Shown here in pieces: positions 3,431 through 42,476 of a DNA stretch of 64,000 nt. Location: assembly GCA_963758915.1 (NCBI GenBank), contig CAVWXH010000016.1:96001-160000 (forward strand), in the 5' to 3' direction. The notes below the pieces were generated by a model. The model was not told where the DNA came from, did not search any database, and worked only from the letters and a program-made list of their open reading frames with translations. The DNA is from an uncultured Methanomicrobiales archaeon. GTDB taxonomy: Archaea; Halobacteriota; Methanomicrobia; Methanomicrobiales; Methanospirillaceae. Every line of letters starts with the position of its first letter. Position 1 is the stretch's first letter. A program made the position numbers and the translations under genes.

Positions 3431-4815
3431 AGGAATACAGGACGATTTCTAAAATTGCCGGTCCTCTCGTGTTTGTCGAGAAGACCGAGCCTATCGGGTA
3501 CGGTGAGCTGGTCAACATTGTGACCTCTGATGGTACCATTAAGCGTGGGCAGGTGCTCGATACGAGCGATAATCTCGTCGTTGTGCAGGTCTTTGAGACG
3601 ACTGCAGGTATCGGAAGGGACAGTGGTGTCCGTTTCACCGGTGAAACCATCAAAATGCCTGTCGGAAAGGAGATGCTCGGACGTATCCTCTCTGGTGGCG
3701 GGAAGCCGATTGACGGCGGCCCTGAAATAGTCCCGGAAAAACGCCTGGATATCACCGGTGCGGCAATCAATCCCTATGCGCGTGCATCACCGAACGAATT
3801 TATCCAGACCGGTATTTCAACCATTGACGGGACGAACACACTTGTCAGGGGACAGAAGCTCCCGATTTTCTCGGCAGCGGGTCTTCCCCACAATAATGTG
3901 GCCCTGCAGATCGCCCGGCAGTCAAAAGTGATCGGTTCCACGGAGCCTTTCGCCGTGGTTTTCGCTGCCATGGGTATCACGAAGGAAGAGGCAAACCACT
4001 TCATGAAGGACTTTGAGCGTACAGGGGCGCTCGAGCGTGCAGTAGTGTTCTTAAACCTCGCTGATGACCCGGCAGTCGAACGGATTATCACCCCGCGTCT
4101 TGCCCTCACAACGGCCGAGTACCTTGCATTTGAACTTGGGATGCACGTGCTGGTTATCCTTACCGACATGACCAATTATTGTGAAGCACTCCGTCAGATT
4201 GGCGCGGCCCGTGAAGAAGTGCCAGGTCGCCGTGGTTATCCCGGTTACATGTACACCGACCTTGCAAGCATCTACGAACGTGCAGGGATTATCAAGGGCC
4301 TGAAAGGTTCTGTAACCCAGATCCCGATCCTTACGATGCCGGGTGACGATATCACGCACCCGATCCCTGACCTTACCGGGTACATTACCGAAGGACAGAT
4401 CGTGGTTTCCCGTGAGCTCCACCGGAAGGGTATTTACCCGCCAATCAACGTTTTGCCCTCATTATCCCGCCTGATGAACCTTGGTATCGGAAAAGGTCAT
4501 ACAAGGGAAGACCACAAAAAGGTCTCTGACCAGATGTATGCCGGGTATGCGGAAGGAAACGACCTCCGTGGCCTGGTCGCGATCGTGGGTAAGGATGCCC
4601 TTTCAGAACGTGACCGGATGCTTCTTGAATTTGCAGACCTCTTTGAACAGCGGTTTGTAAAACAGGGATACGACGAGGACAGGACAATCGTGGACACGCT
4701 TGATCTCGGCTGGGACCTGCTCTCGACATTACCCGTGGAACAGCTCACCCGTATCGATCGGGACCTTATCAACCGGTATCATCCCAAATTTAAAGCCGGG
4801 GCAGCAAAGGAGTAA
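3427..4815 (+). CDS. atpB: A-type ATP synthase subunit B
   Basis: [37 protein letters not shown] motifs. Confidence 0.98.
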
Positions 4816-4821
4816 CGTCAC

Positions 4822-5451
4822 ATGGCGCTCAGAGATATTAAGCCAACACGTTCAGAACTGATCAACCTTAAAAGGAGGATTGCGCTCTCCGAGCGTGGCT
4901 ATAAAATTCTCAAGATGAAGCGTGACGGACTGATCCTTGAATTTTTCAAGGTTCTTGCGGATGCCAAAGACAGCCGTGGAGAACTGCTGCAGAAATACCA
5001 GCGGGCAGTTGAAAGCATGGCGCTTGCGAACACGGTAGAAGGAGCAATCGGGGTAAAATCAGCTGCATTCTCCGTTAAGGAGGTACCCCAGATCATCCTG
5101 ACCTCCAAAAATATCATGGGGGTTGTCGTGCCAAAAATCGAGTCTTCGAAGGTGAGAAAGAGCCTTGTCGACCGTGGGTACGGTGTCCTCGGCACCACCT
5201 CGATTATCGATGAGACCGCCACCTCCTTTGAGGAGCTCGTTGAAGCGATCATCGAGAGTGCAGAGATCGAGACCACGATGAAACGACTCCTTAGTGAGAT
5301 CGAGTCAACAAAGCGCCGTGTTAATGCGTTAGAGTTTAAGGTGATCCCGGAACTTTCCGAGGCACGGGACTTTATCAAGATGCGTCTCGATGAGATGGAA
5401 CGGGAAGAACTCTTCCGCCTTAAGAAGATCAAGGCAAGAATGAAAGCATAA
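4822..5451 (+). CDS. atpD: A-type ATP synthase subunit D
   Basis: KPTRSEL, LKMKRDGL, KRRVNALE, ERE..FRLKKIK motifs. Confidence 0.97.
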   Translation: MALRDIKPTRSELINLKRRIALSERGYKILKMKRDGLILEFFKVLADAKDSRGELLQKYQRAVESMALANTVEGAIGVKSAAFSVKEVPQIILTSKNIMGVVVPKIESSKVRKSLVDRGYGVLGTTSIIDETATSFEELVEAIIESAEIETTMKRLLSEIESTKRRVNALEFKVIPELSEARDFIKMRLDEMEREELFRLKKIKARMKA

Positions 5452-5470
5452 TTGTAACCATGAGGTGCAG

Positions 5471-6686
5471 ATGCCGATCGGCACACTGAATGAAATGGGA
5501 ACTGATGGGAAAACGGTCCTGCTCAGGCTTGATCTCAATTCCCCCATCGATCCCACATCAAATCTTATTCTCGACGATAAACGGTTTCGTGAACATATAC
5601 CTACGATACAGGCCCTGAAGGGAAGCAGGGTCGTGATCGTGACACACCAGAGCCGTCCTGGGAAAAAGGACTTCACGACACTTGAAGCCCATGCTGAGAA
5701 GTTATCCCAGATGCTCGGGCGATCGGTTTTCTATATCGATGATATATTTGGGAACTCGTGCACGGGACGCCGTCCGGAATATGCGTTCGGGAGAAGTGAT
5801 AATGCTTGAGAATGTCAGGTTTAATGCTGAAGAAAACCTGACATTAAAACCCGAAGAAGCAAAAAAGACCCATCTTGTGCGTAAACTTTCAGGTATGGGG
5901 GATATTTTTATTAACGATGCATTCGGGACGGCACATCGCTCGCAGCCTACGGTTGTCGGGCTCCCGCTGGTCATGAAATCAGCTGCCGGTCTCCTGATGG
6001 AGAAGGAGGTCTCAACATTGAGCAGGGTGTTCATCGGGGCGCCAAAACCTGTGTGCATGGTGCTTGGTGGAACCAAGGTTGATGACTCGATGGCGGTTGC
6101 CCGGCATGTCCTTGAACATGGTATTGCCGATGAGGTAATGGTAATAGGCGTAGTTGCGAATGTCTTTCTCATTGCACTTGGTTTTGATATTGGCTCACCT
6201 TCTACACAATTGATCCACCAGCTGAAGTATGATAAGGAGATCGGTCATGCACGGGACCTCCTTGACCGTTACAGGGAGAGGATTATCGTTCCGGACTGGG
6301 TTGCAGTCCGGGAAGGGAACAGGCGTGTGGAATTTCCCGTCAACGCGATACCAGGGGATGCTCCGGTCCTGGACCTTGGGATGGATGCTATCAGCATGCT
6401 TTCAAAACAATTAAAGGCCGCCGGAACTGTGGTATTCAACGGACCGGCCGGGGTGTTCGAGGAGCCTGATTTCGCTACAGGGACCTATGAACTCCTGAAA
6501 GCGGCATCAACAGTGGATTTCTCAGTAGTGGGTGGTGGGCATACCGCTGCGGTTATCGAAAAACTCGGGCTTGGGAAGCACTTTACCCACATATCGACAG
6601 GCGGTGGGGCCTGCATCGAGTTTCTGACCGGGAAAAAACTTCCGGCAGTTGAAGCACTTGAGTTGTCAAAACAGATATTTGGTTAA
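5471..6686 (+). pseudogene. pgk: Phosphoglycerate kinase split by a single +1 frameshift at ~5750 (possibly an assembly error)
   Basis: LRLDLNSP and THQSRPG lie in ORF 5465-5809; LENVRF, NDAFGTAHR, GGTKV, GGGHT, HISTGGGA lie in ORF 5682-6686; removing one G from TTTGGGAACT joins IDDIFG to TRARDAV. Confidence 0.88.
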
Positions 6687-6689
6687 TCC

Positions 6690-7456
6690 GGTTCTGTTGA
6701 AAACACATATGAACAGTGAGTTCACAGCAAAACTATGAAAATTCCCGTTAAATTCTCCTGATATCGGGGGCCGATCAAGCAATTAATATGAAAATCCCAC
6801 TAACAATTTCATTTTGTATGCTTGTGGCCCTTTGGCATCATGCCTGTTTTCACAGGGTATCCTGCATATCTTTTAAATATGGGCTTTGTTGAAACCCTTC
6901 GGTGTCATAAAAAAAATAAGAGGGAAATACGAAGACAGGAGGGGGTTTCGCTCCCTCCCTGCCCCACTCCCATTAAGATATTCTTCGGGCAGGGTTTCCC
7001 AAAGGTCCATTAAATTCAGAGTATAGGGGAATAGTCTCTATCCCAACCGGGGTCGACAAAGCGGCGGGGCGGAGCCCCGGGAGCGTGACGGAATTTTGGA
7101 ATTACCAATCTCCAAGATAGATTTGAGAGGATTACCATGAAAAAGCCTGAACGGCCATTAACATAAGAGATTTTGAACGATACATTTTCATAGCCCTGGT
7201 GTGGACATCCCGTTCTTGTGTGTTTCTACAGAGCGTAAAAAGAGGAAATTCGTTGACAGGAGGGGTTTTCACTCCCTTCCTGTCCCTCCCCCAGCAAAGA
7301 TATTCAGTGTGCATGGTTCACCCGACATTTTGGGGATTTATGGCCCCGTCCCTACCAAAACCGGGCAGCCAAAGCGGCGGGGCCGAACCCCGGGATCTTG
7401 GGTAAATTTGGGAATACCCCTGTTAAAAAGAAAGATTTACAGGTTTTAACAAGCCC
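6690..7456. mobile_element. Mosaic/nested cluster of non-autonomous MITE-like repeats with IS903-like terminal inverted repeats
   Basis: GGCTTTGTTGAA at 6882; inverted ends near 7137-7147, 7222-7234 and 7442-7456; internal blocks recur at 10.6-11.0, 13.1, 15.6, 16.5, 34.4-35.1 and 55.4-55.9 kb. Confidence 0.7.
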
Positions 7457-12358: not shown

Positions 12359-12877
12359 ATGCCAGGAAGTTCTGCGGAGACAGCTTCTCCGGGTTTATTC
12401 GACCGCATGTTTGGGAAAACAGCGAATTCCTGGTACCATAAAGGTGTTGACCTTTACTATAAGCACGGGAAATACCAGGAAGCGCTCCAGGCGTTTGACC
12501 GGGTGCTTGAGATTGAACCTGACCATGCAGGTGCATGGAACGGCAGAGGTATCTGCCTCAAGGAACTGGGAAGGTATGAAGAGGCAATACAGTGCTTCAA
12601 CAGGGTTATTGCAATCAACCCGGCCGATGAGGAAGTCCATTATAACCGGGGGGAGGCGCTTGAAAAACTTGGCAAGAGTAATGGGGATTTAAAATTATTT
12701 GAAGAGGCGATAAGAAGTTTCGATGCGGTACTGAACCTGAATCCCTACCATGTATATGCATGGAATTACCGTGGGGTCTGCCTCAAGGAACTGGGAAGGT
12801 ATGAAGAAGCCAAGCGCTGTTTTGACCATGCACAACTCCTGATTCGCCGGGGCCAGAATAAATCCGGCAGAATTTAG
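12359..12877 (+). CDS. Tetratricopeptide repeat protein
   Basis: About four TPR units (AWNGRGICLKELGRYEEA and relatives). Confidence 0.92.
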   Translation: MPGSSAETASPGLFDRMFGKTANSWYHKGVDLYYKHGKYQEALQAFDRVLEIEPDHAGAWNGRGICLKELGRYEEAIQCFNRVIAINPADEEVHYNRGEALEKLGKSNGDLKLFEEAIRSFDAVLNLNPYHVYAWNYRGVCLKELGRYEEAKRCFDHAQLLIRRGQNKSGRI

Positions 12878-13088
12878 GAAAGTTATGATCCCATGAGATC
12901 CTGTCGGGGATCGATTATTGCCCTGTCTTTCGTGCCGCTGGTTGTCCGGAATGCGGCTTTCATGATGTAGTCCAGATAAGCCGGGTGACCTGGTACCTCC
13001 TGGATGTTTCAGGTGGAAATAGGGGAAACTGCAGGAATTAAAGGACCAGGTCCGTTATACTGTAGCATAAGCAAAATCCTGGTTTTTC

Positions 13089-13260
13089 GGCTTTGTTGAA
13101 ACCCTTTGGTGTTATAAAAAATAAGAGGGAAATACGAAGACCTGGAGGGGGTTTCACCGCCTCCCTGCCCACCCCCATTAAGATATTCTTCGGGCAGGGT
13201 TTCGGCGAAGGCTCATTAAATTCAGAGTATTGGAGGATTATCTCTATCCCAACCGGGGTC
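13089..13260 (+). mobile_element. 5' part of the MITE-like element
   Basis: Begins GGCTTTGTTGAAACCC and follows 6882-7053 closely, then stops abruptly. Confidence 0.75.
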
Positions 13261-13565
13261 TGTTCTCCAGATACTTTTATTTTATCTTCTCTGGTGATTA
13301 TGGTGCTTCCTGTAGTTTAATCAGTCTCCGGACGGGCCTTAGTAAAAACAGGTAATGTATATCTGGGTATTCATCATATGCTACTACCAAGAGGAGTGGT
13401 ATGACCCTTCGGGACATTGATCGGTTCCGGGTGGCAGGGAAAGATATATTGGAAGAGTCAGGAAGATCAACATGAAGTGGGGCAGGTGCGTAACTCCCTT
13501 GAACAGCAGGGAAATATGCAGCAGTCCTTCCCGGAAAATTGTAACTATTTCAATTTGGGTGAAAT

Positions 13566-15416
13566 ATGAAGATAACCACTGACCTGGTGGAAAAAAATAG
13601 TATTAAAGTCCTTATTATTGGTATAACTACTATTGGAGCAGTTTTATTCGATATTTCCGGCCAGGTAAACGGGGCTTCAATTTTTGCACCGCTCCTGTTT
13701 TTCCTCCCAATTATCCTTGCTGCATACTGGTTCCCGCATAAGGGTGTATTATATGCCGTTGGTATCGGGATCCTGCAATTAATTCTTGTATCACAGTTCA
13801 CCTATCCCGACCTCGCCCCACTGACCTATGCGACAGCTACGGCGAGCTTTTATGTCCTTGTGGCGGTTTCAGTTGTGGTATCGGCACTTTCAGGGAACCT
13901 GCGGTTGCAGGAAGCAAGTTACCAGGCAATTTTCAACGATTCCCAGGCGGGTGTACTCCTTGTTTCAGACCGTGAAGAAACGCTGGTGATCGAAGAAGTA
14001 AATAAAAGTGCGGCTTCAAGCCTTGGGTACCTCCCGCAAGACCTTGCCGGTGCCAGGCTTATTTCAATCTGGGATAACTCTCCTGCTTTTAAGAAAATAA
14101 TGGGCCGGCTGGAACATGAACACAGTATTCTGGATATTGAGTCTTTTTTTGTAACCCGCCAGGGTACCTCATTTCCCGTGCTTGTTACTGCAGCACGTCT
14201 GCCGGAACACCACCTGGTCTTTACCTTTATGGATATCACGTCAATCCGGGAAGCCGAAGAAAAAATAAAACGACGGAATAACCAGCTCAGCATTGTAAAC
14301 GAAGTAATCACGATCACATCCAATTCAGAGAGTGTGTATGACCTCCTGGACCGATCCTTTGGAAAAATTAAAAAACTTCTTCCCGTTACTTCAGGGGCAA
14401 TCTACCTCCTGGACGAAGACCGGCATCTCCTGGAGGCCCATTACCATTCGGATGAAGAAGGCGTGACTTCGTCATTACCATTAAAGATCCCGCTAGTAAC
14501 CCCCCCGTTCAATGACGTTGTGCTTCATGGAAGTGCACTGTATACGACGTACTCTTCAGGTGGGAATGAATTCAATACGCAACAATTGAGTGCTGTTATT
14601 CCTGTAAGTTGTGAATCAAGAGTAATTGGATTGTTATGCCTGGTAAGTCCCAAAAACGAGCCATTTGCAGAGGATGACCGGGTTGTCCTTGAATCCATTG
14701 GTAAAGAGATAGGTTGTGCAGTCCAAAAACTCCGGCTTTCTGATAACCTGATCGAGGCGAACAGGAGGGCCAACCTGTACCTCGATATCCTGGTCCATGA
14801 CATCAATAATGCAAACCTTGCCTCCCTCGGGTATGGGGAACTTCTCACAGAAATGCTAACAGGGAAGGAGAAAGATGTGGCAGGGAAATTGATTGAAGGA
14901 GTCCTGAAGAGTCGTGAAGTAATACGGAACCTCGATACGATCCGCCATATACAGGAGCGGAGATTTGATTTCAAGGTTATTAATCTGGACACCCTGATCA
15001 AGCAGGAAATCAGGCACTATCCCTCGGCAGCGATTGACTATGGGGGGTGTAAAACCCTTGTCATGGCGGACGACCTGCTCGCAGAAGTCCTTACGAACCT
15101 TATCGGGAATAGTGCAAAATTTGGAGGCCCGGGTGTACGTATCACCATAAACGTGCAGGACTGTTCTGATCACCTGGCAAAAATAACCATCGCTGATGAA
15201 GGGCCGGGTGTACCGGATGAATTAAAATCAGTAATATTTATCAGGTTCCAGACAGGGGAGGAAAAAGGCAGCGGAAAAGGACTCGGGCTGTTTATTACAA
15301 AAACCCTTATTGAAAGGTACGGGGGTAAAATCTGGGTTGAAGACCGTATAAAGGGCAAATCCAGCAGTGGTGCGGCATTCGTGTTTACACTTCCAACAGC
15401 TAATCCCGGGTCATAA
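13566..15416 (+). CDS. Membrane-bound PAS/GAF sensor histidine kinase
   Basis: N-terminal TM helices, PAS, GAF, H-box LVHDINN, N-box NLIGNSAKF, DEGPG and GKGLGL. Confidence 0.94.
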   Translation: MKITTDLVEKNSIKVLIIGITTIGAVLFDISGQVNGASIFAPLLFFLPIILAAYWFPHKGVLYAVGIGILQLILVSQFTYPDLAPLTYATATASFYVLVAVSVVVSALSGNLRLQEASYQAIFNDSQAGVLLVSDREETLVIEEVNKSAASSLGYLPQDLAGARLISIWDNSPAFKKIMGRLEHEHSILDIESFFVTRQGTSFPVLVTAARLPEHHLVFTFMDITSIREAEEKIKRRNNQLSIVNEVITITSNSESVYDLLDRSFGKIKKLLPVTSGAIYLLDEDRHLLEAHYHSDEEGVTSSLPLKIPLVTPPFNDVVLHGSALYTTYSSGGNEFNTQQLSAVIPVSCESRVIGLLCLVSPKNEPFAEDDRVVLESIGKEIGCAVQKLRLSDNLIEANRRANLYLDILVHDINNANLASLGYGELLTEMLTGKEKDVAGKLIEGVLKSREVIRNLDTIRHIQERRFDFKVINLDTLIKQEIRHYPSAAIDYGGCKTLVMADDLLAEVLTNLIGNSAKFGGPGVRITINVQDCSDHLAKITIADEGPGVPDELKSVIFIRFQTGEEKGSGKGLGLFITKTLIERYGGKIWVEDRIKGKSSSGAAFVFTLPTANPGS

Positions 15417-15571
15417 GTCTTATTGGACCAGGATGTAAACCTGTCTTTTTTTATGCTGTATTTTCTGTTTCATTTACGATCTATGATGAAATACGTTGAC
15501 CGGACGGTGGTTCACCCTGTCCCTGTCCAACCCTAATTACGATGAACGTTCTGGCAACTTCCAGCGGTAGA

Positions 15572-16674: not shown

Positions 16675-17259
16675 ATGACGATTGAAGAACTTTTATCCGG
16701 GAATGAGCAGTTTCGGAGTGTACAGTTTAAGAAAAATATCAGCGTGTACAATGAACTGGCCAGAGGGCAGAAACCCGAGATACTCTGGATTGGGTGCTCG
16801 GATTCTCGTCTCCAGACCGGGCATATCACGGATTCAATGCCTGGGACCCTGTTCATTCACAGGAATATCGGGAATATGGCTGCTCTCAATGACTGGAATC
16901 TTTCGACTGTGCTTGAATACGGGATTAAACATCTAAAAGTCAAACATATCGTGATCTGCGGGCATTCGGATTGCGGCGCAATCAAAGCCCTCGACAAGGA
17001 CCTCGATGATGCATACATACCAAACTGGCTGAACAACGCAATGGATGCAAAAAAACGTGTTGATGCAAAGATCCCAAAGCCTGGCACGCCGGCAGAATTA
17101 AAAGAACGTTCAACGATGATCGAGCAGGAGAATGTCAGGCTGCAAATCGAACATTTAAAAACATACCCCCTTGTCAGGGACGCTATTCATGCGAAGAGTA
17201 TCCAGGTCCATGGCCTTTATTATGATCTTGACACGGGACTGCTCACAAAAATTGTGTAA
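16675..17259 (+). CDS. can: Beta-class carbonic anhydrase
   Basis: Zn ligands in GCSDSR and GHSDCGA; HRNIGN motif. Confidence 0.95.
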   Translation: MTIEELLSGNEQFRSVQFKKNISVYNELARGQKPEILWIGCSDSRLQTGHITDSMPGTLFIHRNIGNMAALNDWNLSTVLEYGIKHLKVKHIVICGHSDCGAIKALDKDLDDAYIPNWLNNAMDAKKRVDAKIPKPGTPAELKERSTMIEQENVRLQIEHLKTYPLVRDAIHAKSIQVHGLYYDLDTGLLTKIV

Positions 17260-18283: not shown

Positions 18284-18790
18284 TCACATAAACCTTTCAA
18301 AACGGTCTTTTTTGGCCTTACAAACCGGGCAGACCAGGGGGGCTTCATCCCTCGCGCAGAGATAGCCGCAAACCCTGCAGCGCCAGACCGGGTACGACAG
18401 GGATCCTGTCTGGGTTGTATGAATCGTTTTCCTGCTGTTTCTTTCACACCGTGGGGGCCTTCGCTCAGGCACGCAGGAAAGGGACTGTTTATTCGACAGG
18501 ATAGCATCAGAAACATACAAAGCGCAGTAACAGGCGCCATACTGGTCAAGGTCCGGGTCGCGGTAATCACATGGACATATGATGTCGAGATCTTCGGCTT
18601 TTATCCCTTTTGAGAAGCGGCAGGGACACGCAGGATATCCATACCGGGCTTCATTAATTAGCAACCCACGGACAAGTTTTTTTGTAAACTCCTTGTCAGG
18701 GCCAAGGTGGTAGCCGCCTTCTCTGGCCTCTCGGTCAAGCACCTGGTACTTTTTCTCCACGTCATCCTGGTTGATGTCCTCCATGTTCAT
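18284..18790 (-). CDS. Ferredoxin:disulfide reductase (FTR catalytic-chain domain plus C-terminal rubredoxin-like domain)
   Basis: CPCR, CPCDY, CYCALY FTR motifs; WRCRVCGY...CPVC rubredoxin motif. Confidence 0.92.
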
Positions 18791-19068: not shown

Positions 19069-19120
19069 AGTATCCTCCAGGTCAGGGGTTTTCTTTGCCA
19101 ATTAGCATTGCGAGGAGTAG

Positions 19121-19302
19121 TATATAAGGGTTCATTGAGTGAACGATAGTACCGTTTTACAACTCACGGTGACACAATCACCTTGACCAAGGCCAATTTA
19201 TTACTGGTATATCCAGGGTGTTTCCATTTCCTAATCATTGTGCAATTTCTCACAGATTTAACACGGTGACCTTGTGATAAACCGGATTACCCTGATTATA
19301 AA
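19121..19302. promoter_or_regulatory. Divergent promoter region between grx-FDR and the acs operon
   Basis: TTATATA on the minus strand at 19121-19127; TTATAAA on the plus strand at 19296-19302; repeated CACGGTGAC. Confidence 0.4.
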
Positions 19303-19377
19303 CCCCCTGAAAGATTGGGATTATCAGAAATCATTTACCATATGGCGATGGAATACTTGTAACAGAGGTATCTGCCG

Positions 19378-21408
19378 ATGACCGAGATGATGACCGCAAT
19401 AAAACTAGGCAATGCAAGCCTGAAGGAGAAAATGAATGCTATAAATGGGCCCATTGCGTATGAAGAGACTGCATATCACCTTCCTGTTGCCTATGCCCTC
19501 ACAGGCCGCCCGGTACATACAGCACAGGAGGCGATCGAGGTGTACAATCTCACCAGCGAAAACCCATTTGTTGCGTGTGAGTCTTTGATGGCCTTTTATG
19601 AACAGGGCCCGGGCCGTGAACCTGCCCCGTATACCGGGTTTATCGGAGATGCAGTACTCAGAAAACTCGGGTACTCACTTGTTGACGGGAGTATCCTCGG
19701 ACTCGCGCTCGTGATTGGTACCCCCGGGAACTCCGATACGGCCTCCCGGATATGCAGGGAGCTTCAGGAAAAATACATGCTTACCTTCCTTGCCGGGGAC
19801 GTGGTAACCTCTCTCTCGTCAGCTTCGGTTAAACTGGGACTTGAGTACCGGCTTATCCCTCTCGGTTCAACATCCATCCATGGCGTGCATTTTGTTGATA
19901 TCATCACCCGTGTTGCCCTGATGTTCGGCGGGGTTGTCCCTGGTGACCCGGGCAGGCTGCTGGCCTATGCAAACCAGCGTGCAAAAGCGATTGCGATCGT
20001 ATTTCCAGGTCTCGATAATGAAGGTATTGCCCTGGTTGACGCTCTGCGGCTCCTTGGTATCCCGATCCTGTCTCTCGGGGGATACGAGGGTGGTGAGTGG
20101 ACCTCGACGGTCCCGCAGGACGCTGTCAGGGAAGGGATGGAAAGAAAAGGGATCAAGGTTACCGTTACGGCTATCCCTATCCCGATGTCATGTTCCCCGG
20201 CATTTGAAGGCAAGAGTATAAGAAAGGAAGAGATGTACGTGGAATTCGGCGGGGGTCGTTCTCCTGCATTTGAGCTGCTCCGTGTAAAATCTGCATCTGA
20301 AGTAACTGATGGCCTGATCCGCGTTATGGGTCCTGAAATTGAGTCTGTTAAGGAGGGCTCGGCAGTCCCTCTTGGAATTATTGTTGATGTCGCAGGAAAA
20401 TCAATGAGGAAGGACTTCGAACCCGTTTTAGAGCGAAGGATCCATAATTTCGTCAATTATGGTGAAGGATCATGGCATGTTGCACAGCGTGACCTCATCT
20501 GGATAAGAATCTCAAAAGAAGCAGTAAAAAACGGTATAAAAATCGAGCATATCGGCAAGCTTATCGCGACCAAGTTCAGGATTGATTTCCCTGACCTCCT
20601 GGACGCTGTCCAGGTAACAATGGTGACAGACCTCCAGGCTGTTCTGGCAGGAAAAAAGGATGCGGAGGCAATTTACGAGGAACGTGACAGGCGTATCCAG
20701 GGGATGAAAGATACCGATGTTGACCTGTTCTATTCCTGCACGCTCTGCCAGACCTTCGCACCAAACCATGTCTGTATTATCACACCCGAAAGGCCCGCGC
20801 TATGTGGCGCAATCTCCTGGCTGGATGGTAAAATTGCATATGAAATATCACCTTCTGGTGCAAACCAGCCTGTTGAGAAAGGGGTAGTTATTGACAGGGA
20901 TAAGGGAGAATTCGAAGGTGTGAACCGTTTTGTAAAGAAAGCCTCGCATGGAGAGGTTGAACGTTGTTCCCTGTACAGTATAATGGAATACCCGATGACA
21001 TGTTGCGGGTGCTTTGAATGCATAGCCCTGATGCTCCCCGAGGTGAACGGCATCATGGTCGTGAACCGCGAATACAAGGGGGACACACCCTCCGGCATGT
21101 CTTTTTCAACGCTTGCAGGGACAATCGGTGGTGGTGCCCAGACGCCTGGTTTCGCCGGGATCTCTAAAAATTATATCCTTTCTGACCGTTTTTTACAGGA
21201 TGAAGGGGGAATTGAACGACTTGTCTGGCTCCCATCCCTGGTAAAAGAGGAGCTGAAAGAACGGCTCGTTAAGAGACTGAATGAACTTGGTCACCCGGAC
21301 CTGTTTGAAAAAATTGCCGATGAGACGAAGGCAACAACCTTAGAGGAACTGGTTGCATTCCTCGACGAAGTACAGCACCCGGCACTCACTATGAAACCGT
21401 TACTATGA
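19378..21408 (+). CDS. acsB: Acetyl-CoA synthase, bacterial-type (AcsB/CdhC family with N-terminal domain)
   Basis: A-cluster ligands SCTLCQTFAPNHVC...LCGA and PMTCCGCFE; N-terminal ETAYHLP and GFIGD.VLR..G..LVDG domain absent from archaeal CdhC; 676 aa. Confidence 0.93.
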   Translation: MTEMMTAIKLGNASLKEKMNAINGPIAYEETAYHLPVAYALTGRPVHTAQEAIEVYNLTSENPFVACESLMAFYEQGPGREPAPYTGFIGDAVLRKLGYSLVDGSILGLALVIGTPGNSDTASRICRELQEKYMLTFLAGDVVTSLSSASVKLGLEYRLIPLGSTSIHGVHFVDIITRVALMFGGVVPGDPGRLLAYANQRAKAIAIVFPGLDNEGIALVDALRLLGIPILSLGGYEGGEWTSTVPQDAVREGMERKGIKVTVTAIPIPMSCSPAFEGKSIRKEEMYVEFGGGRSPAFELLRVKSASEVTDGLIRVMGPEIESVKEGSAVPLGIIVDVAGKSMRKDFEPVLERRIHNFVNYGEGSWHVAQRDLIWIRISKEAVKNGIKIEHIGKLIATKFRIDFPDLLDAVQVTMVTDLQAVLAGKKDAEAIYEERDRRIQGMKDTDVDLFYSCTLCQTFAPNHVCIITPERPALCGAISWLDGKIAYEISPSGANQPVEKGVVIDRDKGEFEGVNRFVKKASHGEVERCSLYSIMEYPMTCCGCFECIALMLPEVNGIMVVNREYKGDTPSGMSFSTLAGTIGGGAQTPGFAGISKNYILSDRFLQDEGGIERLVWLPSLVKEELKERLVKRLNELGHPDLFEKIADETKATTLEELVAFLDEVQHPALTMKPLL

Positions 21409-21413
21409 GGTGA

Positions 21414-22373
21414 TTGCTGATGGCAGAAAACAGCCCGGATTTGGAAGGAAAAATTGGTTACGTTGTCCTTGGGGCAACAAAGGAAGAAGGCGGTACGAGG
21501 TCTGTTTCATACCGCCTCGGTGGTGAATCAGATCTACCTTTCATAGGGATGAACACATCAGCAGGTTCGATCCCGCTTGTGGCGTTTGAAATCTGTGATG
21601 ACGCTTCGTACTGGTCCCCGATAGTTACTTCGTATATTGGTGATCTCGCAACTGATACCCCGGAATGGGCAACTGCAGCCGAAAAACAATACGGAGCAGA
21701 CCTTGTCCGGCTATACCTGACCAGTACGAAACGCCGTGGATTCGACGATTTCCCTTCAATTTCAAAGGTAACTGATGAGGTACTATCCGGCACGGGGCTT
21801 CCACTCGTCGTGGAAGGGAGTAATGAACCGGCAATCGACTCAGAGATATTCCAGCGGTGCGGTGAGGCCGGGCAGGGCGAACGCCTGCTCCTTGGTACTG
21901 CCGAGGCAGGGAGGTACCGCAGTGTTGCCGCTGCAGCGATGGCCTACAATCATTCCGTGGTTGCACAATCTCCAATTGACATCAACCTCGCGAAACAGCT
22001 CAATATCCTCCTCCGTGAAATCGGCCTGAAATCGGACCATATTATGATTGACCCGTATACGGGGTCACTCGGATACGGGTTTGAGTATTCCTATTCAGTA
22101 ATGGAACGGATACGCTATGCTGCGTTAAAGGGTGATAATGACCTTTCCATGCCGATGATTGCCTCGGCCACGGACTCCCTCAGCGTAAAAGAAGTCCGGG
22201 AGGCAGATGCCGCGATCAGGGACGATATAGCCGTTGCATGGGAATTTTATGCAGCACTCTCCTCGGCAGTTGCCGGGGCGTCCATCGTTTGTGTACGGCA
22301 CCCAAAGACGGTTCCCCTGCTGAAACAGGCCTTCCGCGAATTATGGGCTGGAAAAAAGCCCGGGGGGGCCTGA
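21414..22373 (+). CDS. acsD: Corrinoid iron-sulfur protein small subunit (delta)
   Basis: SPIDINLAKQLN, DP.TGSLGYGFEYSYSVMERIR, RHP motifs; short bacterial-like length; start may be the ATG at 21420. Confidence 0.93.
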   Translation: MLMAENSPDLEGKIGYVVLGATKEEGGTRSVSYRLGGESDLPFIGMNTSAGSIPLVAFEICDDASYWSPIVTSYIGDLATDTPEWATAAEKQYGADLVRLYLTSTKRRGFDDFPSISKVTDEVLSGTGLPLVVEGSNEPAIDSEIFQRCGEAGQGERLLLGTAEAGRYRSVAAAAMAYNHSVVAQSPIDINLAKQLNILLREIGLKSDHIMIDPYTGSLGYGFEYSYSVMERIRYAALKGDNDLSMPMIASATDSLSVKEVREADAAIRDDIAVAWEFYAALSSAVAGASIVCVRHPKTVPLLKQAFRELWAGKKPGGA

Positions 22374-22377
22374 AACC

Positions 22378-23715
22378 ATGGCACTAAAAGCCCTTGATAT
22401 TTACAAGCTACTGCCTAAAAAGAACTGCAAAGAGTGCGGGGACCCGACATGCCTTACCTTCGCAATGAAACTCGCCAGCGGTAAGGGTGATATTGATAAA
22501 TGCCCCTATCTGGACCTCAATGCGAAAAATATTCTTGGTGCGTCAACACGCCCGCCGATCCAGCTGGTGAAAATCGGGGTTGGAGAACGGAGGTTTGCAG
22601 TTGGAGAGGAATTCGTGGTCTTCCGCCATGAAAAAACGTTTTATCACCCGCCGGGAATCATGTTCCAGGTATCTGACCTCTGGCCCGCTGAAAAAATTGA
22701 ATCTGTGACAAGGAGAGCAGGGTCAGAACATTTTGTCAGGGTAGGGACCGATTTAACCTTTTCGGGAGTCGCAATAACGAATGAAAGCAGAGACCCGGAT
22801 GTATTTGCAAAGGCTGTGGGCGTTGTTGAGGCAACAGGGACGCATATTCCCGAAGTATTAATGGCGGCGGACCCTGCGGTACAGGAAGAAGGCCTTAATA
22901 AATGCGGAAATTTCCGCCCTCTTATCTACTCAGCCACGAAAGACACGTACAAACCAATGTGTGCCCTTGCGAAGAAATTCGGGTCCCCGCTTGTTGTAAG
23001 TGCAAAAGACCTTGAATCGCTGGGTGAGATGACAAAACTCTGTAATGCAGAAGGTATAACCGACCTGCTTCTTGACCTGTCGTTCCCCTCACTCCGGGAC
23101 TATATCCCTGCAGCAACCGAAATCCGGCAGAAATCGATCTCGCGGTCAGCGCCAGAACTTGGTTATCCCATCTTCCTAGATACAACACGGTACGGGATGC
23201 AGGAAACGGCGCTTGTCCTGGGAATTGACAAATATGCAGGAGTGATCGTGACCCCGGCACTTGGACCTGCACCATCAGTAGCGGCACTTACCCTGCGCCA
23301 GAATATTTATACCGACCCCCAGAAACCAATACAGATGAACCCGGGGATATATCCGGTTGGTAACCCGGGAAAAGAGTCACCGGTACTGCTTACGGTAAAC
23401 TTTTCGCTGACCTACTTCACCGTTCAGGGGTACCTTGAGTCAAGCCGGATTCCCTGTTACATGTTCATCGTCGACACCGAGGGGTTGTCTGTACTTACTG
23501 CGGTTGCAGCGGGAAAGCTGAATGAGACACTTGTCCGTGACTCCATCAAAAAATTCGACCTCGAAAATCTCGTTTCACACCGCCGTCTGATTATTCCTGG
23601 CTATGCATCGCCGCTTTCCGGTAAGATCGAAGAGGAGACCGGCTGGAAGATCCTGGTAGGGCCACGTGATGCCGCAGAAATTGGCGACTACCTTGTAAAG
23701 GAGTGGAAAATCTAG
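22378..23715 (+). CDS. acsC: Corrinoid iron-sulfur protein large subunit (gamma)
   Basis: LPKKNCKECGDPTC 4Fe-4S motif, RQNIYTDPQKP, TVNFSLTY, GLSVLTA.AAG, VGPRDA. Confidence 0.95.
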   Translation: MALKALDIYKLLPKKNCKECGDPTCLTFAMKLASGKGDIDKCPYLDLNAKNILGASTRPPIQLVKIGVGERRFAVGEEFVVFRHEKTFYHPPGIMFQVSDLWPAEKIESVTRRAGSEHFVRVGTDLTFSGVAITNESRDPDVFAKAVGVVEATGTHIPEVLMAADPAVQEEGLNKCGNFRPLIYSATKDTYKPMCALAKKFGSPLVVSAKDLESLGEMTKLCNAEGITDLLLDLSFPSLRDYIPAATEIRQKSISRSAPELGYPIFLDTTRYGMQETALVLGIDKYAGVIVTPALGPAPSVAALTLRQNIYTDPQKPIQMNPGIYPVGNPGKESPVLLTVNFSLTYFTVQGYLESSRIPCYMFIVDTEGLSVLTAVAAGKLNETLVRDSIKKFDLENLVSHRRLIIPGYASPLSGKIEEETGWKILVGPRDAAEIGDYLVKEWKI

Positions 23716-25632
23716 ATGGCCTCCATCACGTTCCTTCCCAGTTACCGGAAGATCACCGTGGACCCCGGGAGTACCATTCTTGATGCAATCCAGAAAGCCC
23801 AAATCCAGATGAATGTTGTCTGTGGCGGCCAGGGTAAGTGCGGAAAATGTATTGTCTACATAAAAAACGGTTTAGTAGATTTTGATCATGAAAAATTCGG
23901 AAAATTTTTTACTGCCGATGAACTGGACCAGGGTGCATGTCTTGCCTGCCAGGCTGTTGTCAGGGATGACCTCCATGTCATGATCCCTGAAAGTTCACTT
24001 ATCCAGCAGCAGAAAATCCTGATGGAATCGCTTGGTATTGAGACCCCTTTTCAGCCGTCTGTATGGAAATATTATGTTGAGCTCTCACCCCCGACACTTG
24101 AAGACCCGTCCCCTGACCTCACGCGGCTTGTATGGGGGGTCCAGAAACAGGGTGGACCCCTGGCAGAGAAAATGTATGCTCCCCTGGATGTCCTCCGGGG
24201 GATGCCCCGTGTCCTCCGTGACAGCGGGTGGAGGGTTACCGCAACCCTCGCACTTGTACCTGGCGGGTACCGGATTATTGATATTGAGAAGGGTGACACC
24301 AGAAAGGAACTCTACGGGGTTGCCATAGATCTCGGCACTACCACGGTTGTTGCATATATTCGTAGTCTTGTTGATGGGCATGTTGTCGGTATTGCATCAA
24401 ATTATAACCGCCAGATCAGCTGCGGAGAGGACATCCTGTCGAGGGTGAATTTCGCAAGAAAGAACGGGCTCCCCAAGTTACAGTCGCTTGCAGCCGAGAG
24501 TATCAACCTTGCAATCACCACTGCCGCGAATGGTGCCGGGATCGACAGGGAGGATATCTATGAGGTTGTCGTTGCCGGGAACACAATCATGACCCACATC
24601 CTCCTTGGTATTGACCCGGCGTACATGATCGAGGAGCCCTATGTCCCGGTAGTGAGGCGTTACCTGACCACCGCAGCACCGAGGCTAGGGATTGAGGTTG
24701 CGAAGGATGCTTCGGTCTTCTTATTTCCTGCCGTTTCTGATTTCATTGGTGGTGATATCATTGCTGATATCCTTGCGTCCGGTATGGGTGAACGGGATGA
24801 GATATCACTTCTTGTAGATATCGGAACAAATTTTGAGGTGGTACTTGGGAACCGTGACTGGATGTTCTCGTGTGCCGGGGCTGCAGGGCCTGCCCTTGAA
24901 GGTGGGGAGGTCCTCTTCGGGATGAGAGCGAACCCCGGTGCAATTGAACGCATCATGATAGATCCGGTAACGCTGGAGCCCCAATACCAGACCATAAACA
25001 GCATAAAACCGATGGGGATTTGTGGTTCCGGGCTTATCGACCTTCTTGCCGACCTTCTCAGGGCCTGCGTCGTGGACAGGACAGGGCGGATCAACACTGA
25101 AATTATCCATCCGCGTATCAGGCAGGGTACCCATTGCCCTGAATATGTGATTGCATGGAAACAGGAAAGTGGAAATAACAAGGATATTGTAATTACCGAG
25201 AATGATATCAAGAACCTGATCATGAGCAAGGCGTCAGTCCTCGCTGCATGCATTACTCTTATGAAACAGGCAGGAATTACGAGAAACGAGATATCAACTA
25301 TTTATTTTTCAGGGGCATTTGGAAATTATATCCACAAGGAACATGCGATCATGATCGGGCTTATTCCTGAGGTACCAGTGGAGCAGATTAAAAACATTGG
25401 GAACGGGGCCGTCGAGGGAGCAAATATGGCATTGATAAACCGGAAAAAGAGAAAAACACTTGATGAAATTGCAAGGAATATCGCCTATATCGAGCTGAAT
25501 GCCGAGTCGTCCTTTATGGATGAGTACACCGGCAGCTCGTTCCTTCCCCATACAGACCTCTCGTTATTCCCGGGGGTCCAGAAAATGCTCGATGAGTGCC
25601 GGTTGAAAAAAATTTCCCGGGGTGTACCATAA
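23716..25632 (+). CDS. acsV: Reductive activator of corrinoid protein (RACo; 2Fe-2S plus ASKHA ATPase)
   Basis: N-terminal CGGQGKCGKC...CLAC; DLGTTT, DIGTN, AAGPALEG, GICGSG motifs. Confidence 0.92.
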   Translation: MASITFLPSYRKITVDPGSTILDAIQKAQIQMNVVCGGQGKCGKCIVYIKNGLVDFDHEKFGKFFTADELDQGACLACQAVVRDDLHVMIPESSLIQQQKILMESLGIETPFQPSVWKYYVELSPPTLEDPSPDLTRLVWGVQKQGGPLAEKMYAPLDVLRGMPRVLRDSGWRVTATLALVPGGYRIIDIEKGDTRKELYGVAIDLGTTTVVAYIRSLVDGHVVGIASNYNRQISCGEDILSRVNFARKNGLPKLQSLAAESINLAITTAANGAGIDREDIYEVVVAGNTIMTHILLGIDPAYMIEEPYVPVVRRYLTTAAPRLGIEVAKDASVFLFPAVSDFIGGDIIADILASGMGERDEISLLVDIGTNFEVVLGNRDWMFSCAGAAGPALEGGEVLFGMRANPGAIERIMIDPVTLEPQYQTINSIKPMGICGSGLIDLLADLLRACVVDRTGRINTEIIHPRIRQGTHCPEYVIAWKQESGNNKDIVITENDIKNLIMSKASVLAACITLMKQAGITRNEISTIYFSGAFGNYIHKEHAIMIGLIPEVPVEQIKNIGNGAVEGANMALINRKKRKTLDEIARNIAYIELNAESSFMDEYTGSSFLPHTDLSLFPGVQKMLDECRLKKISRGVP

Positions 25633-26666
25633 TGGCGGTTCACCTGGCATCGCCCGGCAGCCTGGCGACCGGTATAGGGAGTCTTCCGCATACCGACCCT
25701 GTACTGGCATGTAATGAGGTAGTAAGGATATTCCCGCAGCTACCATATGCCCCCTCACTTCCCAACAGGGGATTACTGGAAAATATTGTATTTTGTGATT
25801 CAGAACGCCTCCCTGGCAGGGTAATCAGGGAGGGAAGACTGCTTGTTGACCGGAAAGCGGATCTTTCGGGTGTAATGGAACAGATTTATCTTGATTACAT
25901 TGAAGGGAATTATTCCCCTTACGCAATAGCAACAGAATATGCCTCAGGCTTTCACGAATTTAAAAGGAGGAAATTTAATTCTCCGTTCGCCCTGAAATGC
26001 CAGGTCACGGGACCGGTGACGTTTGGCATGCAGGTTGTGGATGCAGAAAAACGGCCGGTCTATTATGACAGCCAGTACGCCGATGTCCTCTCGAAGCTGA
26101 TCGCACTCCGGGCCCGCTGGCTCGAACAGACACTGACCGGGGATACCGGGGTTGCGAATACCATTGTAATGGTGAACGAACCATATCTCGCAGCCCTTGG
26201 GTCATCGGTAGTCCCGATAGACATGGATTCTGTCAAATCAGGCTGGCATGATATCGCAGATCTGCTCCAGGGAAGCACAGGCATTCATTGCTGCAGTAAT
26301 ACCGACTGGAGTTTTATATTCTCGCTTGACCCGGGAATCGTATCATTTGATGCCTACGCGACGACGAAGGAATTTCTCCTGTACAGGGATGATCTTTTTT
26401 CCTACCTCGAACGGGGAGGGGTTGTTGCATGGGGTGTTGTACCTGCCGACAACCGTGTTTTTTCCTTGGAAACCCCGGAATCACTGTATGAGCGCTATAT
26501 GGGTATCAGAAAAGAGGTGACCTCGTATATCCCTGAAAAATTATTTGATGCCCAATCAATAATAACCCCAAGCTGTGGAATACGATTCGCAAATGAAACG
26601 GAATCCTGTAGTATTATGGAAACAGCTGCAATGATATCATCCCGTGTTCGGGGGGCATACAATTAA
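25632..26666 (+). CDS. mesB: Folate-independent (core MetE, MesB-like) methionine synthase
   Basis: ATGIGSLPH start, KCQVTGPVT, NEPYL, Zn-site GIHCC / SFDAY / ITPSCG, VAWGVVP; single ~345 aa barrel; TAATG coupling to acsV. Confidence 0.82.
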   Translation: MAVHLASPGSLATGIGSLPHTDPVLACNEVVRIFPQLPYAPSLPNRGLLENIVFCDSERLPGRVIREGRLLVDRKADLSGVMEQIYLDYIEGNYSPYAIATEYASGFHEFKRRKFNSPFALKCQVTGPVTFGMQVVDAEKRPVYYDSQYADVLSKLIALRARWLEQTLTGDTGVANTIVMVNEPYLAALGSSVVPIDMDSVKSGWHDIADLLQGSTGIHCCSNTDWSFIFSLDPGIVSFDAYATTKEFLLYRDDLFSYLERGGVVAWGVVPADNRVFSLETPESLYERYMGIRKEVTSYIPEKLFDAQSIITPSCGIRFANETESCSIMETAAMISSRVRGAYN

Positions 26667-26724
26667 TGAACGATTATAGTAGTGTATTTTTTCTTTGCAG
26701 GCCGGAAAAAGGGAGGTGGTACAG

Positions 26725-27498
26725 ATGATCGTCCCGTATACCATTGCCGTAGCGGGGAAAGGGGGCACAGGGAAGACGACAATTAGTTCCCTGCTTGTGC
26801 GGGCACTTATCGGGCTTGGGAAAGCACCGGTGCTTGCGGTGGATGCTGACCCGAATGCAAATTTTCATGAAGCACTTGGCGTGGAGGTACTGGAAAACCT
26901 TGGCGGGATGCGCGAAGATGCATTCACGAAGAGTATTCCTGCCGGGATGACCCGCACCGATTATATTCGGTTCCGGTTTTACCAGGTCCTCGTTGAGGAC
27001 GATGGTTTTGACCTGATAGCGATGGGCAGGCCTGAAGGGACCGGCTGTTATTGTTTTGCAAATGACCTCCTTAAAACGTGTATGCGTCTGTTAGAGCGTG
27101 ATTACCAGTTTATCATTATAGATTCAGAGGCGGGGATGGAACATATCAGCAGGGGGACTATTGGTATACCTGACCTCCTCCTGATCGTGAGTGACCCGGG
27201 TGCACGGGGTCTCCGTACAGCCTCCAGGATAATCGATATTGCCCTGGACCTTGGTATCAGCCGTTCTGCCATGCACCTGGTTTTTAACCGGTATAAAAGT
27301 GGCGTAGCCCCGGCCGGGGCTTTTCAGGACCCCCCTATCGCGGTGGTCCCCTACGATCCTGCCGTAGAAGCTGCTGACCTTGAGGCATCACCGGTGTCCC
27401 TGATACCTGGTGGGAGTCCTGCAAGAGAAGCGGTGGAGGAATTGGCTGTTAAACTGATTGGATTTGCAGATAAAAAGGAAAGCGAAAGGGTGAAATAA
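26725..27498 (+). CDS. cooC: CooC/AcsF nickel-insertion ATPase
   Basis: GKGGTGKTT, VDADPN, MGRPEGTGCYC, DSEAGMEH motifs; GGAGGT RBS. Confidence 0.92.
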   Translation: MIVPYTIAVAGKGGTGKTTISSLLVRALIGLGKAPVLAVDADPNANFHEALGVEVLENLGGMREDAFTKSIPAGMTRTDYIRFRFYQVLVEDDGFDLIAMGRPEGTGCYCFANDLLKTCMRLLERDYQFIIIDSEAGMEHISRGTIGIPDLLLIVSDPGARGLRTASRIIDIALDLGISRSAMHLVFNRYKSGVAPAGAFQDPPIAVVPYDPAVEAADLEASPVSLIPGGSPAREAVEELAVKLIGFADKKESERVK

Positions 27499-41087: not shown

Positions 41088-42476
41088 ATGGTAAGAATAG
41101 TTCTCACCGGGTTTCGGGGGACAGGTAAGACAAGGGTCGGGGAACTCCTTGCACACATGCTCGGCGTGCCGTTTATTGATACTGATGCCCTGATCGAGGA
41201 ACGTGCCGGAATGACAATATATGAAATATTCCAGAAACACGGGGAGGAATATTTCCGGAAGAAGGAATGTGCAACAATCAACTCCCTCGAGATAGCTGAT
41301 TCCGTGGTCAGTACGGGAGGAGGGGCAATAATGGACCCGTCCAACGTGGCTGCAATCAGGCGCGGTAGTACCGTGTTCCTTCTCACGGCGGATGACCGGA
41401 CCATTGAGCAGAGGATAGCTCGCACAGAACGCCCTTCCCTTACAAGACTTCCGCTCAGGGAGGAGATCCACGAGCTCCAGGCTATCAGGAGACCGTTTTA
41501 CATTGCATCAGCAGATTTTTGCGTTAGTACAACACGGAAAGACGCAAATGAGACGGCCATGGTCATACGGCATATTCTGGCAGGTGGGAATTCAACCAGT
41601 AAGGATGCAGCAGGTTTCCTGTCATTTGTGAGGAAAACTTTAATTGAACCGGAAGAGGCTGATGCACTCGAATCCGCTATTGCATCTCCCGGCCGGGATC
41701 CCCTTACCCGTATCTACGCTGTTGCAGGGAACCCGTGTACCCATAGTCTCTCTCCACTCCTCTTCAACCGCCTGTTCTCTGAATACCGCATGAACTGCCA
41801 TTACACAAGGCTATGCTGGCCTGACTTCGGGGAAATTATCAGGGAGGCGAAAAAAATTGGCATCCGCGGGATTTCCGTCACTATCCCCTTTAAAACCGGG
41901 GCGCTGGCATATATCGATGAAGCTGATGACCATGTAACGGCAATCGGTGCGGCGAACACTCTTGTGATGTGTGAAGGCACAACCTTCGGGTTCAATACCG
42001 ACTGGACCGGGATTAAGGACCCCCTGGATCACCTGAAAGGGTCACGGGCTGCTGTGATCGGGGCAGGGGGAGCTGCAGCCGCAGCGGTGTATGCATTGCA
42101 GTCCCTGGACATGGACGTCACAATCCTTACCAGGAAACCTTCGAATGCAGAGGAACTTTCAGCAAGGTTCGCGGTCCCGGTCAAACCATTGTCCGGATTT
42201 TCAGAAGTCAACCCGGATGTTGTCATAAACGCAACCCCGGTTGGCATGGGGTCTGACATGCGGTCATTAGTTGATACATCACTGCTGAAACCCGGTATGA
42301 CCATTTATGACCTGGTCTATACCCCTGCAGACACCCCACTGATCATCGCTGCCCGGAAAGCAGGCTGTACCACGATACCCGGCACCGAAATGTTTGTGCG
42401 CCAGGCCTGTGCCCAGTTCCGCTGTTTCACCGGTATCGAGGCGCCACCGGCGATTGTGCGGGGGTATGTCATATGA
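41088..42476 (+). CDS. aroE: Fused shikimate kinase (P-loop type) and shikimate dehydrogenase
   Basis: N-terminal [23 protein letters not shown]; C-terminal HSLSP, SVTIPFK, GAANT, NTD, GAGGAA, NATPVGM. Confidence 0.93.

Follow-up and report, generated by a model that had tools for sequence, protein, structure and literature searches.

The window analysed here is a stretch of 64,000 nt from an uncultured Methanomicrobiales archaeon of the Methanospirillaceae (assembly GCA_963758915.1, contig CAVWXH010000016.1, positions 96,001 to 160,000). Positions 19378-27498 of the window contain six plus-strand open reading frames (ORFs) in the order acsB-acsD-acsC-acsV-mesB-cooC, which encode an acetyl-CoA synthase (ACS), both subunits of the corrinoid iron-sulfur protein (CoFeSP), a reductive activator of corrinoid protein (RACo), a MesB-type methyltransferase and a nickel-insertion ATPase (Table 1). 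This operon may cleave acetyl-CoA and pass the methyl group through CoFeSP to the MesB-type enzyme and, probably, to homocysteine.

The intergenic gaps are 5, 4, 0, −1 and 28 nt in gene order. The −1 gap is an overlap in which the acsV stop and the mesB start share TAATG, and the acsB-acsD gap becomes 11 nt if the first ATG of acsD is the start. An earlier model-made reading of the window (hereinafter the preliminary description) had listed six packed, co-directional genes with intact metal ligands. The ORF calls and family matches bear out the packing and, together with remote homology for the fifth gene, the gene identities. Every ligand checked, in AcsB, AcsC, MesB and CooC, is kept. The six-gene operon is real and well conserved.

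Table 1. Features of the operon and its upstream region (window coordinates)
Feature	Position	Strand	Family matches or remark
Upstream intergenic, probable promoter region of the operon	19102..19377	+	276-nt gap 5' of acsB
acsB, bacterial-type three-domain ACS (A-cluster subunit), 676 aa	19378..21408	+	NF040764, PF03598, PF19436
acsD, CoFeSP small subunit, 319 aa	21414..22373 (first ATG 21420)	+	NF003376
acsC, CoFeSP large corrinoid/[4Fe-4S] subunit, 445 aa	22378..23715	+	NF003195, PF04060 (FeS), PF03599
acsV, RACo-type reductive activator of corrinoid protein, 638 aa	23716..25632	+	PF00111, PF17650, PF17651, PF14574
mesB, MesB-type core MetE-like Zn methyltransferase, 344 aa	25632..26666	+	remote homology
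cooC, cooC/acsF-like Ni-insertion ATPase, 267 aa (start perhaps 30 nt further downstream)	26695..27498	+	PF01656, PF13614

In an alignment of upstream regions, a GAAAGTATAT-like box is located ~40 nt 5' of the acsB start and is common to the Methanoregula relatives. The box is only weakly conserved in the window's own upstream region. An Rfam scan for regulatory RNAs, made in the operon and upstream of it, gave zero matches at E≤1.

Proteins encoded by the operon

AcsB matches NF040764 with 899 bits (cut-off 800). Its best solved relatives are the ACS of Carboxydothermus hydrogenoformans (637 bits, full length) and that of Moorella (603 bits), while Methanosarcina CdhC matches the C-terminal part only (377 bits). 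Residues 23-676 align to C. hydrogenoformans ACS, with all A-cluster Cys motifs, including Cys-Gly-Cys, in register. Specifically, AcsB has the N-terminal domain and the four Cys plus Cys-Gly-Cys of the three-domain bacterial type. In bacteria, this N-terminal domain docks onto carbon monoxide dehydrogenase (CODH).

The CoFeSP subunits and their activator are of the expected build. AcsD, the small TIM-barrel subunit, scores 352 bits against NF003376 (cut-off 280) and 215 bits against the Moorella CoFeSP small subunit. AcsC, which has an N-terminal four-Cys cluster and a corrinoid domain, scores 528 bits against NF003195 (cut-off 306), and the C. hydrogenoformans CoFeSP large subunit matches it over residues 1-445 with 369 bits. 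AcsC C17, C20, C25 and C42 are invariant in 19/19 sequences. The acsV product matches all four RACo Pfam domains (Fer2, linker, middle and C-terminal), with a score of 560 bits against NF040756 (AcsV) that is under the cut-off of 800.

The sixth gene product is a ParA/MinD-type ATPase. Its best solved relative is CooC1 of C. hydrogenoformans (3KJE, 70.6 bits), with which its P-loop and C-x-C motifs are in register. By analogy with AcsF, the CooC-like protein probably serves the Ni site of ACS, being kept even in carriers without CODH (see below).

The fifth gene product could be assigned only by remote homology because it has no direct family match. It gave zero Pfam or NCBIfam matches even at E≤10 and zero matches among PDB sequences, and a PDB profile search returned 3RPD at E 0.25 as its sole result. 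A full scan of 1.84 billion representative proteins yielded 1468 relatives with E≤0.001, of which 270 had E≤1e-30. In an alignment of 53 of these relatives, the zinc ligands H219, C221 and D240 do not vary and at least 90% of the sequences have C315; all four are kept in 120/120 close homologues and in 120/120 Dehalococcoidales-type proteins. Their His-x-Cys...Asp...Cys spacing is that of positions 214, 216, 235 and 311 of DET0516, and is the one listed in PMC7857596 for the Dehalococcoides MesB that has been characterised. PF01717, the MetE catalytic domain, is matched by 5 of the 53 family members, and the family profile aligns with MesA of this genome at an hhalign probability of 96.9% (E 1.4e-10), with the zinc ligands in register. 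No second domain was found in the 344 residues, as in a single-domain MetE-catalytic-like enzyme (~340 aa) without a folate-binding domain.

The nearest bacterial relatives of window MesB are Dehalococcoidia and Anaerolineae proteins with 36-43% identity, some of which NCBI names methionine synthase. Price, Deutschbauer and Arkin (2021, PMC7857596) set the MesB threshold by phmmer against DET0516 itself, at 173 bits or more (or 130 bits). Here P0299 (NCBI: methionine synthase [Dehalococcoidales]) stood in for DET0516, and its BLASTP score of 228 bits (36% identity) against window MesB is a proxy for the DET0516 score. The MesB family requires both CoFeSP subunits, and these are encoded in the operon (acsC and acsD) and also on contig C15 of the genome (cdhD and cdhE). 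The zinc motif, the MesA profile match and the Dehalococcoidales relatives agree with the preliminary call of the fifth gene as mesB. On these sequence features, we accept its product as a MesB-type zinc methyltransferase.

Occurrence with and without CODH

The preliminary description had placed a CODH-less operon in an acetate-requiring hydrogenotroph, with no CODH and no AcsE in the operon or the window. The last point stands: contig C16, which carries the window, has no Prismane/CODH or Pterin_bind match. The absence of AcsE even extends to the whole genome (94% complete), in which the sole PF00809 (Pterin_bind) match is dihydropteroate synthase (DHPS; TIGR01496, 201 bits, cut-off 162.6), encoded beside FolD and GlyA. 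The absence of CODH does not extend to the genome. Contig C15 carries cdhA (1099.6 bits), cdhB, cdhC, cdhD and cdhE in a row, and contig C2 carries cooS (679.3 bits). There is no AcsA-AcsB arrangement, that is, no CODH gene in the same cluster as AcsB. Nothing in the genome marks a need for acetate. By the names of its closest homologues, the organism is a Methanoregulaceae methanogen, and a gene for MCR component A2 is present. Genes for AMP-forming acetyl-CoA synthetase are present as well. The best synthetase match (C15, 55793-57604, 870 bits) has one in-frame TAA, so that either the gene is broken or the assembly is perhaps wrong there; another copy, on C3, reaches 659 bits, under the cut-off. 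Prismane-family fragments at two contig ends (C6, 1-1300; C5, 132672-132935) could derive from a further CODH or HCP gene split by assembly.

Compared with the genome's own archaeal proteins, window AcsB is only 46.5% identical to CdhC (over 404 aa), AcsD 38.6% identical to CdhD and AcsC 33.8% identical to CdhE, which indicates that the window operon is a second system, separate from CdhABCDE. The AcsD alignment begins at CdhD residue 74 and, as aligned, window AcsD does not have the N-terminal extension that archaeal CdhD typically carries.

The distribution of the module was counted in 251 Methanomicrobiales genomes, 172 of them high-quality. These genomes are kin, so the counts are descriptive of the sample rather than a statistical test. 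The MesB gene is found in 98 of the 251 genomes (81 of the 172 high-quality ones), cdhA in 61 (49), cooS in 125 (101) and a MesA-type PF01717 gene in 236 (170). Thus, the module occurs in about four in ten sampled Methanomicrobiales species. Among the 98 MesB carriers, 19, including this genome, have both cdhA and cooS, 29 have cdhA without cooS and 34 have cooS without cdhA; cdhA is present in 48 carriers overall. The other 16 carriers have neither gene, and 10 of these are at least 90% complete.

Five carriers without cdhA and cooS were checked individually. In all five, acsB is located ~6 kb upstream of mesB. Three of them (98-99% complete) have no Prismane-family gene at all and keep acsB at 65-74% identity, while the other two have only an HCP-like Prismane-family gene of 530-550 aa. 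The module does not depend on CODH across the order.

Operon structure was compared at 80 loci, with one genome per species (39 Methanomicrobiales, 40 Chloroflexota and 1 Sysuimicrobiota). All six genes are found in the same order and on the same strand at 24 of the 39 Methanomicrobiales loci, in Methanoregula, Methanolinea, Methanosphaerula, Methanoculleus, Methanofollis and Methanospirillaceae. Twelve further loci are cut by a contig end and are consistent with the six-gene order. Locus L038 places the operon in the cultured Methanosphaerula subterraneus EG. The remaining three are irregular: acsV was undetected at L050, a 2.7-kb insertion is present and acsC was undetected at L055, and the mesB match is split at L070. 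A cooC-like gene follows mesB at every archaeal locus that reaches that far. Thus, the order recurs across Methanomicrobiales, which the preliminary description had proposed to check. The insertions at L023, L024 and L055 were considered as sites of a missing methyltransferase or CODH; apart from unknowns, their only products are a thioredoxin-like and a PG-binding protein.

No ACS gene is near mesB at any of the 41 bacterial loci, 15 of which spanned full 10-kb flanks. In five bacterial genomes (Chloroflexota/Sysuimicrobiota), acsB is found elsewhere, with 44-53% identity to window AcsB; on one complete chromosome it is ~890 kb from mesB. In a quick maximum-likelihood tree of MesB, 37 archaeal and 41 bacterial rows are split by one long branch (SH-aLRT 100), and the archaeal rows group by family.

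The flanks of the operon are not conserved, and DtxR and FeoB are next to it at none of the relatives' loci. Just 5' of the window operon are a beta-class carbonic anhydrase gene (16675-17259, plus strand) and a gene for a fusion of a ferredoxin-thioredoxin-reductase catalytic domain with a rubredoxin-like domain (18284-18790, minus strand). Neither adjacency is kept in relatives.

Other gene sets were observed in this genome. Directly 3' of cdhABCDE are two genes, one for a B12-binding corrinoid protein (PF02310, 221 aa) and one for a protein with DUF166 (319 aa) (L012, G000:C15:84000-100000, 12757-15563), with a 300-aa RACo C-terminal-like gene on the opposite strand; this set beside the archaeal ACS looks like a second small corrinoid system. 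The DHPS gene noted above is in a row with FolD and serine hydroxymethyltransferase and adjoins a CofE-like ligase (L104, G000:C6:86000-95000, 4249-7128, minus strand), a folate-type C1 set in a methanogen. The region 5' of cooS (L013, G000:C2:86000-100000, 4091-5934) contains a 5TM-LYT/SpoIIE phosphatase over two adjacent ORFs followed by a HATPase_c_2 kinase-like protein, a partner-switching-like set in an archaeon. Farther downstream in the window (41088-42476, plus strand), a fusion protein combines a shikimate kinase domain of the bacterial type with shikimate dehydrogenase. Its gene is located in an archaeal-type shikimate cluster with a DeoC-type aldolase, DHQS II and EPSP synthase.

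Direction of the ACS reaction and the methyl acceptor

No pterin-loading methyltransferase is encoded, and AcsB is therefore the only encoded enzyme known to methylate CoFeSP. Because AcsB is also kept in CODH-free carriers, cleavage of the Dehalococcoides type is the simplest reading. Specifically, AcsB would run in the cleavage direction on acetyl-CoA and pass the methyl group to Co(I) of CoFeSP (AcsC/AcsD), and the MesB-type enzyme would then move it to a zinc-activated thiol, most likely homocysteine, yielding methionine. RACo would rescue Co(II) corrinoid at the expense of ATP, and the CooC-like protein would load nickel into the A-cluster. The released CO would be oxidised by the cell's CODH, CooS or CdhA in this genome; in relatives without CODH, it would leave the cell. 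The direction of the ACS reaction, the hand-over from CoFeSP to MesB and homocysteine as the acceptor are each plausible from the gene content. For this organism, we give cleavage of acetyl-CoA by AcsB, with transfer through CoFeSP and MesB probably to homocysteine as an accessory route, about an even chance of being correct.

This route is in part the acetyl-CoA-to-methionine module of the preliminary description. The CODH-free carriers fit a cleaving ACS, as had been proposed, but in this genome the route would be accessory, since MesA (PF01717, 146 bits, contig C1) and CdhABCDE are both present and the module answers no evident need. The redundancy weighs against the cleavage reading, as do the cooS gene on C2 and the MesA-type gene that accompanies MesB in 96 of 98 carriers (the two exceptions are <80% complete). 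The finding is also less striking for this genome because of the normal CODH/ACS and MesA.

The physiology of relatives bears on the reaction in both directions. Acetate-requiring Methanospirillum strains carry CODH/ACS genes, the function of which is called unclear in the published account (PMC11346949). According to the same account, strains of Methanospirillum purgamenti with such genes still need acetate, while Methanospirillum hungatei JF-1 is facultatively autotrophic and may fix CO2 with its ACS genes by the reductive acetyl-CoA pathway. If the ACS of M. hungatei JF-1 is of the window type, net synthesis is therefore possible, a further point against cleavage.

In such a biosynthetic direction, CoFeSP would be methylated from methyl-tetrahydromethanopterin (methyl-H4MPT), by itself, like CdhDE, or by another enzyme; AcsB would form acetyl-CoA from this methyl group and CO supplied by CooS or CdhA, and MesB would tap the methyl-CoFeSP pool for methionine. 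For archaeal CoFeSP, self-loading from methyl-H4MPT with no need of a separate methyltransferase has been reported (PMC13370988), which could apply to the window CoFeSP too and also counts against cleavage. The retained N-terminal domain of AcsB would suit a CODH partner. In the 34 carriers with cooS and no cdhA, the module and CooS would make a complete CODH/ACS. In a few Methanoregulaceae, cooS followed by its own cooC is found on the same strand 2-3 kb downstream of the operon (L031, 13878-16711; L036, 12934-14856), and coordinates give the same spacing in genomes G163, G155 and G065. Two genes of unknown family separate the operon from this cooS.

The CODH-free carriers argue the other way: three of the five checked keep acsB with no Prismane-family gene of any kind. 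The acetate requirement of the M. purgamenti strains also speaks against synthesis. The extension that window AcsD lacks is one described for archaeal CdhD (PMC13370988), and 48 of the 98 carriers, this genome among them, already own CdhABCDE for the synthetic task. We therefore favour acetyl-CoA cleavage that feeds methyl-CoFeSP to MesB, since carriers without cdhA and cooS keep the module, and consider the biosynthetic reading unlikely, though still a serious candidate. A former place of cooS in the operon of this genome was also considered and dropped: no evidence for it was found, and the genes between cooC and cooS at L031 are unrelated to the neighbours of this genome's own cooS.

Although the zinc site is invariant, the putative homocysteine-binding residues differ between archaeal and bacterial MesB. 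The equivalents of MetE Ser433 and Asp599 bind homocysteine and are "mostly conserved" in MesB according to the text of PMC7857596, the numbering of which maps them to positions 17 and 182 here. Window MesB has Ser17 and Asn182, while bacterial MesB has Asp at the equivalent of position 182. Among the 120 closest homologues, position 182 is Asn in 118 and Ser in 2, and position 17 is Ala in 85, Ser in 24, Gly in 10 and Thr in 1. Among 120 Dehalococcoidales-type proteins, position 182 is Asp in all 120 and position 17 is Ser in 118; among 129 full-length family representatives, the counts are 122 for Asp and 119 for Ser. Both Ser and Asp are kept in L033 and in three copies of the Methanospirillaceae clade (L046, L047 and L057). 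Within MesB, only the archaeal clade has an Arg three residues past the final zinc ligand, yet this Arg is present in this genome's own MesA and was given no weight.

The altered Asp and Ser in most archaeal MesB make homocysteine less certain as the acceptor, and therefore also weigh against the full route to methionine. These changes could be without effect or could point to a shifted acceptor. In the latter case, the MesB-like enzyme of most Methanomicrobiales would methylate another thiol, for instance coenzyme M or a small mercapto-acid, or would load CoFeSP in reverse from a methylated thiol; either way, the operon would connect acetyl-CoA with a thiol-methyl pool independently of H4MPT and Mtr. 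The invariant zinc ligands beside Asp-to-Asn in 118 and Ser-to-Ala/Gly in 95 of 120 homologues fit such a shift, as do the long branch between the archaeal and bacterial clades and the near-universal MesA, beside which a second methionine synthase is not obviously needed. However, Asn is a conservative replacement that might bind the amino group all the same, the window protein retains Ser17, and the clade is not uniform, as the Methanospirillaceae copies with Ser and Asp show. We know of no cultured Methanomicrobiales that makes methane from acetate, which we also count against a shift. We regard a changed acceptor as improbable. Equally improbable, in our estimate, is its specific form for most archaeal MesB, in which the enzyme, its zinc site kept, would transfer acetate-derived methyl groups supplied by a dedicated ACS/CoFeSP to a different thiol, for instance coenzyme M. 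If true, nominally hydrogenotrophic methanogens would gain a route from acetyl-CoA to a thiol-bound methyl group without H4MPT or Mtr.

The duplication of all operon functions by CdhABCDE and MesA, and the patchy presence of MesB within genera (e.g. in one genus 17 of 48 genomes, in a second 2 of 10), would also fit a relic of horizontal transfer that now has no role in this genome. Against this, all six frames are open, all ligands are intact, gene order and sequence are conserved in four or more families of Methanomicrobiales, and MesB proteins cluster by family in the tree. RNA-library contigs also match operon genes. Contigs of two studies match acsB, acsC and acsV with 0-2 differences, and one contig at 26431-26698 spans the mesB stop codon. 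These matches are a weak sign of expression; RNA libraries can carry DNA, a caution that applies to the cleavage reading as well. Contigs of a third study (run X19) are only 90-95% alike and come from relatives, and parts of the operon stretch have no RNA-contig cover; no inference was drawn from either. We consider a relic very improbable.

If the module does cleave acetyl-CoA for methyl supply, the puzzle of ACS genes in acetate-requiring strains would be explained and the Dehalococcoides idea of a "backwards ACS" would reach archaea. CO release would be predicted from methanogens without CODH.

Comparison with known systems

The genome's own CdhABCDE uses the same chemistry, namely an A-cluster ACS and CoFeSP. 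In contrast to the 463-aa archaeal subunit, window AcsB has 676 aa with the bacterial N-terminal domain, and no CdhA or CdhB is attached to it. MesA, the methylcobalamin:homocysteine methyltransferase of methanogens predicted to use MtrA, is likewise a core MetE-like zinc enzyme and is related to window MesB at the profile level. Unlike window MesB, MesA matches PF01717 directly and is unlinked to ACS genes. The MesA-type gene is also far more widespread than that of MesB (236 against 98 of the 251 genomes).

The preliminary description had asked whether the arrangement was already described. The pairing is in print: Price, Deutschbauer and Arkin (2021, PMC7857596) report methanogen operons in which mesB accompanies acsC and acsD, with CoFeSP inferred as the methyl donor. 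The consulted sections of that paper, apart from its figures and supplements, do not mention acsB, RACo and cooC as part of the unit, altered substrate residues, a bacterial-type ACS beside the archaeal Cdh complex, or occurrence with and without CODH. In the literature searched, which took in those sections and did not extend to Adam et al. 2018, there is no statement of the full six-gene unit with bacterial-type AcsB beside archaeal Cdh, of CODH independence across the order, of the cleavage direction in methanogens or of the altered residues. The core idea, that is, the mesB-acsC-acsD pairing with CoFeSP as the donor and the Dehalococcoides mechanism, is already published. The altered substrate residues in archaeal MesB may be new.

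The closest counterpart is Dehalococcoides mccartyi, which has an incomplete Wood-Ljungdahl pathway (Zhuang 2014, as cited in PMC7005905 and PMC7857596). A route from acetyl-CoA through AcsB and CoFeSP to core-MetE, with CO set free, was proposed for Dehalococcoides by Deobald et al. (2020, PMC7005905). Transfer of the acetate methyl group to methionine was shown by labelling in the Dehalococcoides lineage, and core-MetE was characterised there (PMC7005905, PMC7857596).

The differences from D. mccartyi concern both gene arrangement and context. Chloroflexota mesB is apart from the ACS genes, while the window has all parts in one operon. Dehalococcoides lacks both CODH and MesA. This genome has CODH (cdhA and cooS), and MesB is not its sole methionine synthase, given MesA on C1; CODH is absent from 16 of the 98 related carriers. 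Most archaeal MesB are altered at the homocysteine-binding Asp and Ser. The two systems share AcsB, AcsCD and a core methionine synthase of the MesB type, and AcsE is absent from both. Among bacterial proteins, those of Dehalococcoidia and Anaerolineae come closest to window MesB, and the flow proposed for D. mccartyi, from acetyl-CoA through methyl-CoFeSP to homocysteine with CO as a by-product, is the one that the window operon may share.

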